Shown here: piece by piece, positions 3,390-12,085 of the stretch | How positions within the stretch are numbered: position 1 is the first letter of the stretch | Layout of the letters: each line of letters opens with the position of its first letter | The notes under the pieces: model-generated | Database searches by the model: none | Told to the model about the DNA's origin: nothing | Seen by the model: the letters and a program-made list of their open reading frames with translations, nothing else | From: Escherichia coli | Lineage (GTDB): Bacteria; Pseudomonadota; Gammaproteobacteria; Enterobacterales; Enterobacteriaceae | DNA length: 64,000 nt | Assembly (NCBI RefSeq): GCF_024223415.1 | Contig: NZ_CP100500.1 | Reading direction: 5' to 3' (one strand) | Program-made: the position numbers and the translations under genes

Positions 3390-4121
3390 ATGAATCAACC
3401 AATACACAATGCTTACTGGTTATCCCGTTTTGACAGCCTTCTCGACAGTGCCCTGTCGCAGCACCGTGCCGTCTCGTTAATCCGGGTGGATTTACGTTTC
3501 CCTGAGTATATGCCTGTCACCATCATGGATCCCGATCCGGATTCAGCGGTGATTTCTCGTTTTTTCGAATCCCTGAAAGCCAAAATCCAGGCTTACCAGC
3601 GGAAAAAACGACGTGCCAACAAGCGTGTGCGTGCAACCACTCTGCGTTATTTCTGGTGTCGGGAGTTTGGCAAGGAAAAAGGCAGGAAACATTATCACGT
3701 GATATTGCTGCTCAACAAAGATACCTGGTGCTCGCCAGGGGATTTCAGCGAACCATCTTCGCTGGCGACGATGATCCTGGAGGCATGGTGCAGCGCCCTG
3801 CATCTTGAGGCCTGGCAGGGTAATGGACTGGTTCATTTTTCCAGGCGGACGCCTTTCCGTAAACCGACATCATCTGATGCTCGCCCTTCTTCCGATGATA
3901 CGCCTTTGTCGGGTGGATGTTCTGATACCAGGAAGGCTTCAGACAAAAAGCCGGGTGAAGCCGCTGTTCTCTGGATCAAGCGTGGTGATGTGGCAGCGAT
4001 GCAGAAAGCCCGGAAAAGAGCCCGTTATCTCGTGAAAAATCAAACGAAGCAGCATAATGGTTCCGGTCAACGTAATTATGGTTGCAGCCGTGGGCCGGGG
4101 CGTCTGCTGGATGGCAGGTGA
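3390..4121 (+). CDS. inovirus Gp2-family protein (YagK/YfjJ-like)
   Basis: 243 aa ORF MNQPIHNAYWLSRFDSLLDSAL...RVDLRFPEY...HYHVILLLNKD, pattern of YfjJ/YagK island proteins; preceded by conserved upstream motif. Confidence 0.65.
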   Translation: MNQPIHNAYWLSRFDSLLDSALSQHRAVSLIRVDLRFPEYMPVTIMDPDPDSAVISRFFESLKAKIQAYQRKKRRANKRVRATTLRYFWCREFGKEKGRKHYHVILLLNKDTWCSPGDFSEPSSLATMILEAWCSALHLEAWQGNGLVHFSRRTPFRKPTSSDARPSSDDTPLSGGCSDTRKASDKKPGEAAVLWIKRGDVAAMQKARKRARYLVKNQTKQHNGSGQRNYGCSRGPGRLLDGR

Positions 4122-4631
4122 AGTCTGTAAAACGGTATCCGGTGCCAGGGGGGGGATATCACGGTAAGGGCGTCAGCCAACGTCTTTCGCTCGTATTCTG
4201 ATAACCCGTCCTGAAGTCATGTATCTGCTTCCATTCTCATGTTCATATTTCTCTTACGCTTTCACTGTCTGTCATCGGAAGTACCGATTTATTTTGGTGC
4301 TGCGCACTTACGGCCATTCACGGAAGAGGATTGTGGTGAACAGTAGGAGTCTGGCTGCTGGCGAGGGAAGGTTCAGGACTGGTATGGGGTTTAGTGCTGG
4401 AGGATGACTTTGAATCCCGGATTGACCAGTGAGGGGGCAGTGAGAGGATGCTCTGGTGTAACAGGTCTGGATTACAAAATATAAAACCGGTTGTACACTC
4501 GTAACGGGTAAAAGGATACGGGCAATAACACGTGGTACCCGGTGAGACTGGCTCTTGTATCACATTACCGGGAATATTCTGGCAGGTGAAATGTTCTGAT
4601 AAGAATCATCCTGAGGGAGGATACAACGGAT

Positions 4632-5084
4632 ATGAACGTTATTGACAGCCGCATTCGTGATGTGAAATTTGGTGAAAATGTGAAAGTCGTCATGCCAGTA
4701 AACCTCTATGAATGTGAACTGGGGGATGATGTTTTTATCGGTCCCTTTGTGGAAATACAGAAGGGATGCATCATTGGCAACCGGAGCCGAATTCAGTCCC
4801 ACAGTTTCATCTGTGAGAACGTCATTTTAGGTGATGCCTGTTTCATCGGTCATGGCGTAACTTTTCCTAATGATCTGTTTAAGTGTGGTGGTCCCGATAC
4901 CTCTGCAGAAAGCTGGATACGCATCGTATTAGGTAACACTGTAACAGTGGGTAGTGGAGCGACCATTTTAACAACAGAAATTTGCAGTGGAGCTGTGATT
5001 GGTGCTGGTAGTGTGGTTACAAAGCCCGTGCTGGTAAAAGGCGTGTATGCGGGTAATCCGGCCAGACTTTTGAGAACGCTTTAA
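4632..5084 (+). CDS. hexapeptide-repeat (left-handed beta-helix) acyl/acetyltransferase
   Basis: 150 aa with repeated [LIV]-G-x-x-x-x hexapeptides (VFIGPFVEI, CIIGNRSRI, VILGDACFIGHGV, VLGNTVTVGSGATI, AVIGAGSVV). Confidence 0.7.
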   Translation: MNVIDSRIRDVKFGENVKVVMPVNLYECELGDDVFIGPFVEIQKGCIIGNRSRIQSHSFICENVILGDACFIGHGVTFPNDLFKCGGPDTSAESWIRIVLGNTVTVGSGATILTTEICSGAVIGAGSVVTKPVLVKGVYAGNPARLLRTL

Positions 5085-5335
5085 TTATTGAATCCAATAT
5101 TAAACCAGACAGACAGTAAACATAATACTGTTCCGGATATCGCTTGCCGCAGGAACCTCCTTAACATTCAGGAAAATAAAGCTTTTATTGCTGCTATGTA
5201 CCATAAGAGACAGAAGTAATTGATTTACCAGTATTACACCTGTTGAAGCTATGGTTATTCACCTTTTATTTTTTGAGCAGCGTATTTATACTTCCCGGAG
5301 CATTGTTTAAATATAATCGCCCGGGATTGATTCGT

Positions 5336-6241
5336 ATGGCTCTTGAACAGGAAATCGCAAACCTTGTAAACGAGTTTGTCGCGGCTGGTCGTCCATCCTG
5401 TCGTGACCAGACCTTTGATGAACGCCGTGCCGGATATATCGCAAGTACTGCTCTGGCCGGCGATACAGAAACCCGCGTAAACATCAGTGATGTGATTATT
5501 GACGATGTTTTATTGCGCATATTTTCGCCTTTAAACGATGATGGGGTGTTATCCGCAATTGTCTATTATCATGGTGGCTGTTTTGTCAGTGGTGGTTTTG
5601 TAACCCATGATAATCAGTTGCGACAGCTTGCTTTCCTGAGCGGTTGTCGTGTCATTGCTGTACAATATCGATTAACGCCGGAACATATTTATCCTGCGGC
5701 ACATGACGATGCTGAACATGCCGCTAATATTGTGTGGCAACACGCAGAAATGTTGAAAGTTGATCGCAACAGAATAACGTTAATGGGGGATAGCGCTGGG
5801 GGACATCTTGCACTGATAACAGCACTGCGGGTTAAAAACATCGGTCAGTGGTTACCGCGAAAATTAATACTTATTTACCCTATGCTGGATGCCACAGCAT
5901 CATGTGATAGTTACAAATTAAACGGTAGTGACTATGTGCTGACAGCAGACACGTTTCTTAGTGGTTATGAGGCTTATTTTTCCGGTCAGGATTTAGAACA
6001 TCCGGAAGTGAGTCCATTATTCAGGAATGATTTCAATGGGTTACCACCTGTTCATGTCATCACAGCGGAATATGACCCATTACGCGATGAAGGTGAGGAA
6101 CTGTTTTCCCGTATGATTCAACAAGGAGTAAAGTGTACCGCCCAGCGTTATCTCGGTGTCATTCACGGTTTTTTCCAGCTTGGCGGCATTAGCCAGACAG
6201 CCCGTAATCTGATGCAGGATATTTGTGGGATTGTTAAATAA
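5336..6241 (+). CDS. alpha/beta-hydrolase esterase/lipase (family IV, HSL-like)
   Basis: HGGC/HGGG oxyanion motif (YYHGGCF) and GDSAGG nucleophile elbow; start placed at MALEQE, the 5243 start adds a hydrophobic extension and is uncertain. Confidence 0.7.
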   Translation: MALEQEIANLVNEFVAAGRPSCRDQTFDERRAGYIASTALAGDTETRVNISDVIIDDVLLRIFSPLNDDGVLSAIVYYHGGCFVSGGFVTHDNQLRQLAFLSGCRVIAVQYRLTPEHIYPAAHDDAEHAANIVWQHAEMLKVDRNRITLMGDSAGGHLALITALRVKNIGQWLPRKLILIYPMLDATASCDSYKLNGSDYVLTADTFLSGYEAYFSGQDLEHPEVSPLFRNDFNGLPPVHVITAEYDPLRDEGEELFSRMIQQGVKCTAQRYLGVIHGFFQLGGISQTARNLMQDICGIVK

Positions 6242-6487
6242 TCACGTAACAAGCAGCTACAGGTAAATTAGCTGAGCATGCATCCATCATTTGTCGCTGC
6301 GATGCCAGACTTCCGGATGCTCATATGTTGTTTTACTTTTGTCAGCATAAATGCTGCGTCGGGACTGGTGAATGGAGATAAGCCATTTTATTATCGACGT
6401 CAGAGAACATACTCACAATGTCGGTATGTTTCTGAAATTAAGGGTAAGTTTTGCGCTGATTACAGTATGCGAAGGAGATCTGGCACA

Positions 6488-11069: not shown

Positions 11070-11133
11070 ACATCATGTTCAGCCGTTCCCCCGAACTTAC
11101 ACATCCTTCCATTTCACCGAGGATATTCCGACC

Positions 11134-11367
11134 ATGTTGAGCACAACAACATCCCACGACAGCGTATGGTTGCGTGACGACGATCCCCTGATCGACATGA
11201 TTTTCATCACCAGTTTCACCGGCATGACCGACAAATGGTTCTACCAGCTGATGAGCGAAGGCAGGTTCCCGAAGCCCATCAAACTGGGCCGCAGCAGCCG
11301 CTGGTACAGAAGCGAAGTGGAGCAGTGGATGCAGCAGCGCATCGAAGCATCACGGGGAGAAGCATGA
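11134..11367 (+). CDS. alpA: AlpA-family phage/island transcriptional regulator (HTH)
   Basis: 77 aa MLSTTTSHDSVWLRDDDPLIDMIFITSFTGMTDKWFYQLMSEGRFPKPIKLGRSSRWYRSEVEQWMQ, classic AlpA pattern. Confidence 0.8.
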   Translation: MLSTTTSHDSVWLRDDDPLIDMIFITSFTGMTDKWFYQLMSEGRFPKPIKLGRSSRWYRSEVEQWMQQRIEASRGEA

Positions 11368-11492
11368 AAGGTATTGTGATACCGGTTCGCTGGCAATGTG
11401 CAAACTGCCGGCGCTGGTATTGTGGTAATCCCCCCTGCCCCTGGTGCTGGCGACCTGCTGCACCGTCTGTCATTCCTCATCCTTCGCTGTAA
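11364..11492 (+). CDS. small Cys-rich protein (zinc-ribbon-like, 42 aa), start overlaps alpA stop (ATGA)
   Basis: MKGIVIPVRWQCANCRRWYCGNPPCPWCWRPAAPSVIPHPSL; five Cys in CxxC...C...CxxC spacing; GGGAGA upstream. Confidence 0.3.
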   Translation: MKGIVIPVRWQCANCRRWYCGNPPCPWCWRPAAPSVIPHPSL

Positions 11493-11548
11493 CAGGCATC
11501 GTACCGGTGCCGGCGTGCTTTCCTGTGCACCGGCACCGGTTCAGAAAC

Positions 11549-12085
11549 ATGCAAAGAGAGCAAATCGTGCAGATAACCGAAACCGTACTTTCAGAGCCGG
11601 TGGAAATCCGGCGTTTTATTCAGCAGGCGGTGGATCACTGGCCGCGTCTGCTGGCCGTTCAGTTCACACTTCATTCAACAGGAGGAAATTGTGACGGGAG
11701 GCAGATTCATGCGTTTTACTGGGCATTTTACCGACAGCTGAATCAGCGAAGCCATACCGGATATCCGTTACTGCCGGTGGTGCTACGCTGGCTGCGGGAA
11801 ACGACAGAAAGCACAGACAGCACCGGGATACGCTGTCTGTTGCTGATCAGCCAGGATCTCATTTGCCCACCAGGATCCAGAATGACGTCTGATGACGCTG
11901 ATTCGCACCTTGTGGCGTTACTGCAGCAGGCCGGCACCACACTCACGGCAGAAGGGCACTGTACGGTGGTATGCTGTTACAGGGTGGTGCGTGCAGCCAC
12001 ACCTGAAGGCGCTGAGTCACTCACGGCATTCAGAAACGCGTGCCTTTCGTTGGCCAGGCCCGTGATGGCCGGCATCATCCGCTAA
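11549..12085 (+). CDS. hypothetical protein, possibly a further Gp2/YfjJ-like paralog
   Basis: 178 aa ORF after a 11-bp inverted repeat hairpin (11497-11533); weak pattern similarity to the Gp2-family genes (…LLPVVLRWLRETTESTDSTGIRCLLLISQD…). Confidence 0.4.
   Translation: MQREQIVQITETVLSEPVEIRRFIQQAVDHWPRLLAVQFTLHSTGGNCDGRQIHAFYWAFYRQLNQRSHTGYPLLPVVLRWLRETTESTDSTGIRCLLLISQDLICPPGSRMTSDDADSHLVALLQQAGTTLTAEGHCTVVCCYRVVRAATPEGAESLTAFRNACLSLARPVMAGIIR

Follow-up and report, generated by a model that had tools for sequence, protein, structure and literature searches.

The stretch of Escherichia coli DNA analysed here (the window) comprises 64,000 nucleotides. At its left end lies the 5' part of a GTPase-family gene (YfjP/YeeP-like; 1..482, minus strand), which the annotations of E. 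coli E41, Ch1 and GF60 give as a GTPase family protein encoded on the opposite strand. This gene opens a divergent arm, GTPase-DUF932-antirestriction-RadC-YeeU/CbtA, running on to the left of the window. Between the divergent arms an ORF on the plus strand (583..1806) constitutes a low-GC hypothetical gene of 407 aa, which is hypothetical in E. coli E41 as well and gave no match in NCBIfam, PHROGs or PADLOC. Positions 1-3400 are 99.8% identical to E. coli E41, Ch1 and GF60.

A preliminary description had listed four genes of the inovirus Gp2/YfjJ family at 3390, 9690, 10494 and 11549, and all four ORFs are indeed situated there on the plus strand, with family links by Pfam, hhalign and Foldseek; they are designated g1 to g4 here. 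The first, g1 (3390..4121), is an intact YfjJ-type gene of 243 aa. It matches the Pfam families YagK_YfjJ_C (PF11726, E=3.5e-37) and REP_ORF2-G2P (PF23343, E=6e-8) as well as replication-initiator PHROGs, and shares 30.5% identity with YfjJ of E. coli K-12 (E 1.8e-26). The Rep-like motifs RVDLRFP, HYHVILLL (HUH) and YLVKNQTK (YxxK) are present, and H101, H103 and Y213 show no or almost no variation in the g1-family alignment, down to 35% identity. In the leader of g1 (3304..3389, plus strand) two copies of the 19-nt box GCNNTGMTTAATGAYRTGA, at 3304-3322 and 3340-3358, are followed by the RBS. Four matches to this box were found in the window versus 0.24 expected by chance, and the box is kept upstream of g1 in L001, L002, L009, and L011. 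A second copy of the leader element (10297..10365, plus strand) lies about 165-185 nt upstream of g3 and aligns with the g1 leader over about 70 nt, with CTG where g1 has ATG; it is kept in L002, L009, L010, and L011. The presence of this paralogous element before both g1 and g3 is consistent with their co-regulation.

The interval between g1 and g2 contains a cargo slot. In the window it is occupied by rare cargo (4632..6241, plus strand), a hexapeptide-repeat acyltransferase (4632-5084) and a hormone-sensitive-lipase-type esterase (5243-6241), both assigned by NCBIfam and annotated in GF60, together with yfjI; L002 has yfjI alone and GD33 has a TIR gene. Only 3 complete E. coli genomes match at least 80% of window positions 3000-12500, cargo included. 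The gene yfjI (6488..8080, plus strand) encodes a DUF3987 P-loop protein (Pfam DUF3987, 2.2e-75) with the Walker A motif PGAGKTT, a PHROG match to 'DNA helicase' (2.7e-46) and 31% identity to K-12 YfjI. Its start at 6488 was inferred from the PGAP CDS of GF60; the longest ORF starts at 6278. Since many island variants lack yfjI, the gene may be cargo rather than core. Downstream of yfjI follows an AT-rich, pyrimidine-skewed non-coding spacer of 1.6 kb (8081..9689), for which an Rfam search gave no match. It comprises degenerate repeats of 21-23 nt (8676-8786) and an octamer array, a perfect (TCACTCTA)x11 at 8856-8943, of which the GF60 spacer has only 5 copies.

The second catalytic-type paralog, g2 (9690..10255, plus strand), is a pseudogene in the window. 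As had been described beforehand, it is frameshifted: a -1 frameshift lies in the A-run at 9984-9989, where the window has A6 versus A7 in the 99.9%-identical E. coli GF60, which carries an intact gene of 188 aa. The frameshift is strain-specific and is the sole decay in the cluster. Repaired g2 matches Pfam weakly (REP_ORF2-G2P 2e-5; YagK_YfjJ_C 1.1e-4) and aligns to the g1-family profile in hhalign at 87.3% (E 3.8e-6, 165 columns), an alignment that spans both the HUH and the YxxK motifs. The corresponding g2 motifs are FHAHVVF and HYLAKEEQK, and H86, H88 and Y156 are conserved in the g2 family.

The third gene, g3 (10494..11069, plus strand; 191 aa), is a cryptic, divergent YagK/YfjJ paralog recognised by profile alignment via distant relatives. 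It has no match in Pfam (Pfam-A library used), NCBIfam or PHROGs, and is 'hypothetical' in every annotation. A g3 profile including the two distant relatives P0274 and P0279 aligned to the g1 family at 97.8% (hhalign, E 9.6e-13, 127 columns); both relatives have a precomputed PF11726 annotation, and one of them matches PF11726 at 1.7e-10. The first HUH histidine is gone from g3 (EYHVV), and the C-terminal helix has no conserved tyrosine. Next to it, alpA (11134..11367, plus strand) encodes an AlpA/Vis-type HTH regulator or excisionase (PHROG excisionase/regulator, 7e-9; 'AlpA family transcriptional regulator' in GF60). Fusion proteins of g3 and AlpA, P0012 and P0015, carry PF05930. The DUF3987 (YfjI-like) and alpA genes reported together with the four paralogs are accordingly both present.

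The last paralog, g4 (11549..12085, plus strand), is a degenerate YagK/YfjJ-like member of UCP030791 (PF27752); its start is either the ATG at 11549 or lies at 11567, as PGAP has it in GF60. The g4 protein found no match in the Pfam-A library that was used. Homologues of g4 have PF27752 'UCP030791', and NCBI names some of them 'inovirus Gp2 family' or 'YagK/YfjJ domain-containing'. It aligned to the g1 family at 86.3% (hhalign, E 4.8e-6, 125 columns), and the top Foldseek matches of its AF2 model were all Gp2/YagK-YfjJ/DUF3296 proteins. Both HUH histidines are lost (IRCLLLISQ), and the allele in the window is divergent, being about 53% identical in amino acids to the allele common in E. coli. 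The first downstream cargo (12150..15057, plus strand) is a gene for a UvrD-like helicase with ankyrin repeats, consisting of two ORFs (12212-13345 and 13342-15057); it is frameshifted according to the GF60 annotation and gave weak PADLOC matches to GajB/Nhi/AbiO and ankyrin. The region downstream of g4 varies among islands and the g1-g2 interval differs among the window, L002, GD33, and E41, bearing out the cargo exchange that had been proposed.

All four genes are homologous to the YagK/YfjJ family, as distant relatives, and are paralogs only at superfamily depth. The pairwise alignment suggested earlier did not succeed, as direct BLASTP among g1-g4 gave nothing significant, whereas g2, g3 (with its relatives), and g4 do align to the g1-family profile. 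Because pairwise BLAST similarity is absent, the four genes are not recent copies of one another. The HUH and YxxK motifs are kept in g1 and g2 and lost in g3 and g4. Among solved structures there was no sequence-level relative and no match to any solved Rep. No g1 homologue was found in bona fide phage genomes, the single match being an unverified 4.5-kb contig that resembles host island DNA. Sequenced phages essentially lack the family, which weakens the analogy to 'inovirus Gp2'.

The order g1-(cargo slot)-g2-g3-alpA-g4 recurs across E. coli, and the g2-g3-alpA DNA was matched in 2087 of 5426 complete genomes of the species, the median copy number being one. L002 shows the identical order (g1-yfjI-g2-g3-HTH-g4) and GD33 the variant g1-TIR-g2-g3-alpA-g4; in E41 g3 directly follows g1 without yfjI or g2 (g1-g3-alpA-g4), and a further E. 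coli variant reads g2-g3-alpA-g4. Arrays of catalytic-type, g3-type and g4-type genes also occur in distant loci at 30-57% protein identity, on two distant Logan-assembly contigs in this order after AlpA. Reduced versions of the module are present in distant Enterobacterales loci; a Klebsiella plasmid island has a g1-type gene, AlpA and a g4-type gene, without the g3-type. All four paralogs are under purifying selection, with dN/dS values of 0.35-0.40 for g1, 0.14-0.22 for g2, 0.12-0.23 for g3, and 0.26-0.42 for g4. We conclude, with a probability of roughly 85%, that positions 1-12.1 kb of the window belong to a single E. coli genomic island with a conserved backbone of two arms, of which they represent one. 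This arm encodes four anciently diverged Rep-like YagK/YfjJ (PF11726, 'inovirus Gp2') superfamily members and AlpA; a variable slot adds YfjI, the P-loop protein with DUF3987. The island belongs to the P4-integrase/CP4-57/SRL-PAI type and has a YeeU-CbtA arm, its integrase being placed outside the window. Since the four genes form a backbone module that is conserved and under selection in an island common in E. coli, the finding is largely ordinary.

The CP4-57-like context noted beforehand holds. The K-12 cryptic prophage CP4-57 (intA-alpA-yfjI-yfjJ ... yfjP ... yfjZ-ypjF) shares AlpA with the island of the window, YfjI and YfjJ at the identities given above, and in its other arm the GTPase, DUF932, antirestriction, RadC and CbtA-type TA genes. 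It differs in that its annotated interval has only one YfjJ and lacks paralogs of the g2, g3 and g4 types, in that alpA precedes yfjI-yfjJ, in that the GTPase-to-toxin arm is co-oriented with alpA but divergent in the window's island, and in the integrase located directly upstream. The tables of the Shigella flexneri SRL PAI list three Gp2-family ORFs with YfjI and AlpA: YfjI is orf2, the adjacent orf5 and frameshifted orf6 are of the Gp2 family, orf39 is YfjJ-like and orf41 is AlpA/Vis, followed by GTPase, Ag43, YfjQ, KlcA, RadC, YeeU, and YeeV (PMC6980539). Arrangement and orientation are different there, about 30 cargo ORFs separate the paralogs, and the g3-type gene has no other label than hypothetical. 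The SRL-related pheV/serX-type PAIs of E. coli E41, UTI89 and GD33 share the backbone of the window.

Concerning the function of the module we tentatively propose a nicking and replication mechanism, to which we give somewhat less than an even chance. Controlled by AlpA, the module would then serve a CP4-57/SRL-PAI-type island as its arm for replication or mobilisation, in which g3 and g4 are putative non-catalytic partners. As it is described to do in CP4-57 and in satellites, AlpA would turn on excision, and the catalytic paralog (g1, or g2 where intact) would nick an origin in the excised circle. The nick could start rolling-circle-type replication with YfjI or pass the strand to a conjugative apparatus, and g3 and g4, which would have kept the DNA-binding fold, might act as accessory or regulatory subunits. 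DUF3987 and DUF5906 together define the primase gene of PICMI satellites, and deletion of that gene lowers the circular copy number (PMC10803314), which argues for a replication role of DUF3987. AlpA and a Gp2-like protein are core genes of mobile islands (PMC12595487). Compared with HUH rolling-circle Reps (phiX174 gpA, inovirus gpII, parvovirus NS1/Rep nickase domains) g1-g4 are small (170-240 aa) and without helicase domain, and catalytic residues are missing from g3 and g4. Only weak inverted repeats and no origin or nick site were identified, and the literature search yielded no functional study on YagK/YfjJ proteins. Backbone and mechanism taken together are, with moderate confidence, the best overall explanation.

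Alternatively, the paralogs could be non-nuclease DNA-binding regulators that control or silence island genes together with AlpA, the HUH-like motif of g1 and g2 being vestigial. The conservation of g3 and g4 despite the lack of all catalytic residues, the leader element common to g1 and g3, the adjoining HTH regulator, the annotation of one AFDB relative (Foldseek rank 14) as transcriptional regulator, and the fact that no phage has this family as its Rep would fit. However, His-x-His and Tyr-x-x-Lys are (nearly) invariant in g1 relatives to 35% identity and in g2 relatives; catalysis is favoured because this invariance is hard to explain otherwise, and we regard purely regulatory proteins as rather unlikely.

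Rep-like HUH proteins act as relaxases in some integrative mobilisable elements. In the same way g1 and g2 could serve conjugative mobilisation from an oriT between the divergent arms, the antirestriction/RadC/DUF932/toxin-antitoxin arm being the first to enter the recipient, as the leading region of a plasmid does. The divergent layout, which separates anti-restriction-type genes from HUH genes, and the conjugative nature of 39 of the 64 plasmid records in which g1 homologues occur suggest such a role. On the other hand, neither an oriT nor a gene for a coupling protein or a T4SS was seen, the plasmid copy that was inspected resembles an inserted island and not a plasmid transfer gene, and yfjI, where present, points to replication, which makes relaxases a less plausible choice still.

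The preliminary description had interpreted the cluster as at least two CP4-57-like or satellite elements, tandem or nested, repeatedly integrated at one site and partly decayed. The single yfjJ next to alpA-yfjI in CP4-57 could suggest several elements for four copies; g1 or g2 precedes g3 in E. coli variants, so that the form with both could be a recombinant of two; g2 is frameshifted, and the GF60 genome has several related islands. Yet the 64-kb window has no P4-type integrase and likewise no island ends, and neither a second alpA/yfjI set nor att-like direct repeats occur in or around the cluster. With paralogs that are ancient and dissimilar in BLAST, an order that recurs even in the distant loci, dN/dS of 0.12-0.42 and no decay beyond g2, the tandem origin is largely refuted and repeated integration improbable.

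According to the least probable reading, the module controls a phage satellite (similar to P4, PICI or PICMI, or transduced in the manner of Pseudomonas I55), and its Gp2-like proteins replicate the island for helper packaging: int-alpA-DUF3987 is the PICMI core, AlpA and the DUF3987 replication protein being shared here (PMC10803314), and the Pseudomonas tmRNA islands I23, I44 and I55 share the core of AlpA, Gp2-like protein and RadC, such islands with IntY being transduced by a jumbo phage (PMC12595487), but the comparison with satellite maps proposed earlier found no P4/PICI hallmark genes among the ten ORFs searched against PHROGs (capsid redirection or remodelling, packaging, psu/sid/delta and cos-related functions all unmatched), no helper relationship is known here, and the islands carrying the backbone are large mosaic PAIs with tens of kb of cargo, well above satellite size.

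The cluster comprises four YagK/YfjJ-type ("inovirus Gp2") genes on the plus strand, g1 (3390-4121), g2 (9690-10255), g3 (10494-11069) and g4 (11549/11567-12085), together with yfjI (DUF3987; 6488-8080) and alpA (11134-11367). Acyltransferase and esterase genes are situated as cargo between g1 and g2 (4632-6241). The window consists of accessory DNA of E. coli: positions 3321-12500 are 98.7% identical to strain GF60, positions 1-3400 are 99.8% identical to several strains, and later parts match other strains piecewise. The PGAP annotation of GF60 lists, in this order, an inovirus Gp2 family protein, an acyltransferase, an alpha/beta hydrolase, a YfjI family protein and an inovirus-type Gp2 protein, followed by a hypothetical protein, an AlpA family regulator, a second hypothetical protein, a frameshifted UvrD-like helicase and an Rpn nuclease. 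Consequently, two of the four genes were already labelled as Gp2-type and two as 'hypothetical', and the cluster itself is already annotated in public genomes. We add here that g3 and the UCP030791 gene g4 appear to be degenerate members of the superfamily, that purifying selection acts on the set and that it forms one backbone.

In a Pfam scan g1 matched YagK_YfjJ_C (PF11726) at 3.5e-37 and REP_ORF2-G2P (PF23343) at 6e-8; K-12 YfjJ is 30.5% identical to it. The E. coli g1-type proteins carry a Ser/Pro/Asp-rich insertion of about 45 residues (residues ~150-195 of g1) between the core and the tyrosine helix, which according to the family alignment is missing from K-12 YfjJ and from the Morganellaceae and Brenneria relatives. 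The gene g2 had been described as a pseudogene by frameshift, and this was confirmed: the window has A6 at 9984-9989, GF60 has A7, and the flanks are otherwise identical. The repaired protein of 188 aa matched REP_ORF2-G2P at 2e-5 and PF11726 at 1.1e-4 and could be aligned over its full length to the profile of the g1 family (hhalign 87.3%, E 3.8e-6, 165 columns). By these profile matches g1 and the repaired g2 can be regarded as members of PF11726.

For g3 no match was found in Pfam (even at E<=10), NCBIfam or PHROG, and every homologue retrieved by word index is an E. coli 'hypothetical protein'. When 1.84 billion representatives were searched exhaustively with HMMER, only two distant full-length relatives emerged, P0274 (36% identity; phmmer 8e-16) and P0279 (33%; 1e-8). 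One of the two matched PF11726 at 1.7e-10, and a precomputed annotation as PF11726 exists for both. When the g3 alignment was restricted to full-length members plus these two relatives, hhalign against the g1 family gave 97.8% (E 9.6e-13, 127 in-register columns); with frameshifted fragments included the probability was 9%. Because there is no direct Pfam match and homology runs via the two relatives and hhalign, g3 would be a superfamily relative and not a profile-level member of PF11726.

In the Pfam-A library used, g4 had no match either. Its homologues are assigned to a separate, newer Pfam family, PF27752 'UCP030791'; the names given to some of them are 'inovirus Gp2 family' or 'YagK/YfjJ domain-containing'. 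The comparison of g4 with the g1 family gave an hhalign probability of 86.3% (E 4.8e-6, 125 columns). On a distant contig from a Logan assembly (L005) a g1-type and a g4-type gene match each other in BLASTP at 5.7e-10 (small database), and intermediates thus connect both types. The AF2 model of g4 (pLDDT 68) retrieved as top AFDB50 Foldseek matches exclusively Gp2/YagK-YfjJ/DUF3296 proteins, among them members from Vibrio, Photobacterium and Pseudoalteromonas at 14-25% identity. Both g3, so far labelled 'hypothetical', and the UCP030791 gene g4 thus appear to be degenerate members of the Rep-like superfamily of g1 and g2. The statement of the preliminary description that four Gp2-family paralogs are present therefore holds directly for g1 and the repaired g2, and for g3 and g4 by way of hhalign and intermediates, not by a direct Pfam match.

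Pairwise alignment of the four proteins, which had been proposed as a check, did not bear out their kinship: direct BLASTP among them was insignificant, and homology emerged with profiles against the g1 family, the profile comparisons g2-g3, g2-g4 and g3-g4 not being significant. This pattern suggests that g1 to g4 are ancient paralogs which radiated from a g1-like hub. NCBIfam assigned no family to g1-g4, YfjI or AlpA, and with PADLOC the proteins g1, g3, g4 and YfjI and the cargo went unmatched, except that the downstream helicase gave weak matches of UvrD/GajB type. In a phage collection the sole g1 homologue is on an unverified 4.5-kb contig with IS66 and an autotransporter fragment, and this contig looks like host island DNA.

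Three Rep-like motifs are kept in g1 and g2: RVDLRFP and LRMDFFY, HYHVILLL and HAHVVFW, and YLVKNQTK and YLAKEEQK, respectively. The His-hydrophobic-His element (HYH, residues 101-103 of g1; HAH, residues 86-88 of g2) is conserved in the respective families; the tyrosine of the YxxK motif is invariant in the g1 family (Y213-L-V-K) and conserved in the g2 family (Y156-L-A-K). In g3 the second histidine alone is retained (EYHVV), the first position being E, C or F across the g3 family, and the C-terminal third of the g3 alignment contains no invariant tyrosine. In g4 G-I-R replaces H-Y-H, with an invariant arginine in place of the second histidine, and the tyrosine of QYVALKT found in most family members is a leucine in the allele of the window. 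Thus g1 and g2 have the His-x-His and C-terminal Tyr motifs of HUH endonucleases, and g3 and g4 lack them. The likeness of g1 and g2 to HUH Reps is confined to motifs: solved structures gave no match at the sequence level, and 0 matches came from searching PDB sequences with the g1-family profile or with YfjI. In the literature on the YagK/YfjJ family we found no published nicking assay and no functional study.

The preliminary description had interpreted the cluster as a tandem or nested array of partly decayed elements and as a site of repeated integration. The order g1-yfjI-g2-g3-HTH-g4 also occurs in strain YZ_2_2, there without the acyltransferase/esterase cargo. In a ranked sample drawn from the 2122 E. 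coli genomes with matches, four variants recur: g1-yfjI-g2-g3-alpA-g4, g1-TIR(opposite strand)-g2-g3-alpA-g4, g1-g3-alpA-g4 and g2-g3-alpA-g4. DNA of g2-g3-alpA is present in 2087/5426 complete E. coli genomes, the median copy number being one. The backbone or a part of it is found in ~38% of complete E. coli genomes. To the left of the cluster and on the opposite strand lies an arm GTPase-DUF932-antirestriction-RadC-YeeU/CbtA-DUF4942. The window starts inside the GTPase gene and holds its 5' end at 1-482; the arm is complete in GF60, YZ_2_2 and strain E41. Related arrangements were also found outside E. coli. In L005 the CbtA...GTPase arm is followed by a Zn-ribbon gene, AlpA, g1-type, g3-type and g4-type genes and cargo, and a second Logan contig (L004) contains AlpA and a g2-type gene, then g3-type and g4-type genes and DUF2913. 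The Klebsiella pneumoniae plasmid pRWS291.s3 (IncFIB/IncHI1B; positions 8989-18564 of locus L012) carries a g1-type gene, AlpA, two Zn-ribbon genes, a g4-type gene and DUF2913. Immediately downstream of this related backbone comes an RND efflux cluster with a resistance-gene prediction; the module therefore also travels with resistance cargo on plasmids.

Codon-based dN/dS values from five E. coli copies were 0.35-0.40 for g1, 0.24 for YfjI, 0.14-0.22 for g2, 0.12-0.23 for g3, 0.05-0.28 for alpA and 0.26-0.42 for g4. These values show purifying selection on each of the four paralogs, and the set is a single backbone. The whole window contains no tRNA or tmRNA, tblastn with IntA and with the GF60 integrase found nothing in it, and among att-like direct repeats in and around the cluster only weak or chance pairs were found. 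In GF60 a P4-type integrase is located ~19 kb left of g1, its island assignment being ambiguous; the window does not reach the ends of the island. Since the gene order recurs, dN/dS indicates purifying selection, and tRNA, P4-type integrase and att-like repeats are missing in and around the cluster, we reject both stacked decay and repeated integration. Cargo exchange, which had also been proposed, is borne out by the interval g1-g2 and the region after g4, both of which are variable slots. The acyltransferase/esterase cargo is rare: window positions 3000-12500, which include it, are represented to at least 80% in just 3 complete genomes. The g4 allele of the window shares ~53% protein identity with the common E. 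coli allele, as against 80-88% for the neighbouring g3 and alpA, a difference indicating that the allele was replaced or recombined where g4 borders the cargo. Overall, the analysis chiefly clarifies the nature of the cluster, which is an ordinary feature with existing annotation rather than a hotspot where decayed elements are stacked.

An element of ~70 nt (GTAAA..TTACCGC..TTAATGATGTGA..TCAACGGAG), with the box GCNNTGMTTAATGAYRTGA and a GGAG ribosome binding site, is located upstream of g1 (3304-3389) and again ~165-185 nt upstream of g3 (10297-10365). It is conserved in every E. coli variant examined, at corresponding positions in GF60, YZ_2_2, E41, UTI89 and GD33. The copy upstream of g3 has CTG at the position of the ATG of g1; in the window it is followed by a 23-codon ORF (10360-10431). 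The sharing of this element suggests that gene and leader were duplicated together in the distant past; it also suggests co-regulation.

The spacer of 1.6 kb from yfjI to g2 (8081-9689) is non-coding, AT-rich and pyrimidine-skewed. It contains the perfect octanucleotide repeat (TCACTCTA)x11 at 8856-8943 and, just upstream, degenerate repeats of 21-23 nt (8676-8786). In GF60, elsewhere 99.9% identical, the octanucleotide occurs just 5 times (20536-20575 of the GF60 locus); its copy number is therefore variable. Candidate roles are phase variation, an origin or an H-NS target. A search for origin-like hairpins gave only weak or chance pairs, Rfam at gathering thresholds gave 0 matches in window positions 1-20 kb, and a sigma-70 promoter scan found 14 sites, fewer than the 18.9 expected from shuffled sequence.

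The CP4-57-like context ascribed to DUF3987 and alpA was corroborated: the YfjI of the window matched DUF3987 at 2.2e-75, contains a Walker A motif and has a PHROG helicase match, and the window shares with CP4-57-like islands the module of AlpA, YfjI and YfjJ and the GTPase...RadC...CbtA/YeeU arm. However, CP4-57 has one YfjJ and co-oriented arms, whereas the window has four paralogs and the GTPase arm on the opposite strand; the tyrosine integrase at a tRNA/tmRNA att site with direct repeats, typical of such islands, is not within the window. The ORF table of the SRL PAI likewise lists several Gp2-family ORFs, YfjI and AlpA in one island (PMC6980539). CP4-57 and SRL-type PAIs are thus the nearest known counterparts, alongside HUH Reps and AlpA/DUF3987 satellites. 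A primase with DUF3987 as one of two defining domains is known from PICMI, where deletion of the gene leads to fewer circular or concatemeric copies (PMC10803314).

These genes suggest a working scheme. AlpA reportedly activates integrase expression and excision in CP4-57 (Kirby, Trempy and Gottesman 1994, cited to this effect in PMC12595487). In the island AlpA would act in the same way, as activator of integrase expression and excision. Most economically, a Rep-like HUH protein encoded beside AlpA and DUF3987 would then nick an origin in the excised circle and start rolling-circle-type replication or strand transfer. The proteins g3 and g4, being catalytically degenerate, selected and syntenic, may serve as DNA-binding accessory or regulatory partners. 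A bolder version, which we consider improbable, is that catalytic g1/g2, obligately non-catalytic g3/g4 and AlpA form a heteromeric origin-processing machine driving replication or transfer of large PAIs, with g3/g4 setting origin specificity or timing via the leader boxes. Alternatively, the YagK/YfjJ set could consist of pure regulators, or of mobilisation relaxases. Least favoured is a satellite control module: AlpA/DUF3987 satellites are among the closest known systems (PMC12595487, PMC10803314), but the comparison with P4-like and PICI satellites failed. In PHROG scans of ten ORFs from 1-12 kb the matches were limited to replication, helicase, excisionase and esterase functions, with none to the psu/sid/delta, cos or terS/ppi/cpm hijack functions, and the host islands are large mosaics, in contrast to the compact ~10-15 kb of such satellites. 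Superfamily membership of g3 and g4, their lost catalytic residues and purifying selection on all four paralogs sharpen the question of how 'cryptic' islands replicate or move. The backbone flanks virulence, defence and resistance cargo, namely aerobactin and dsd/cdi genes and, beside the related Klebsiella plasmid module, the RND efflux cluster.

Downstream of g4, a UvrD-like helicase with C-terminal ankyrin repeats (12150-15057) is split into two ORFs overlapping at 13342-13345 and is annotated as frameshifted in GF60 too. It gave weak PADLOC matches to the models GajB, Nhi, AbiO and ankyrin and could represent defence cargo or a system of two genes. In the gap between the divergent arms is a 407-aa ORF of low GC content (~33%; 583-1806), for which NCBIfam, PHROGs and PADLOC gave no match; several E. 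coli strains carry it with 99.8% conservation. The right part of the window (~40000-64000) is a Mu-like prophage with tape measure, DUF935 portal-like protein, tail sheath, terminase and late control D genes, 94-98% identical to prophages of human E. coli isolates.
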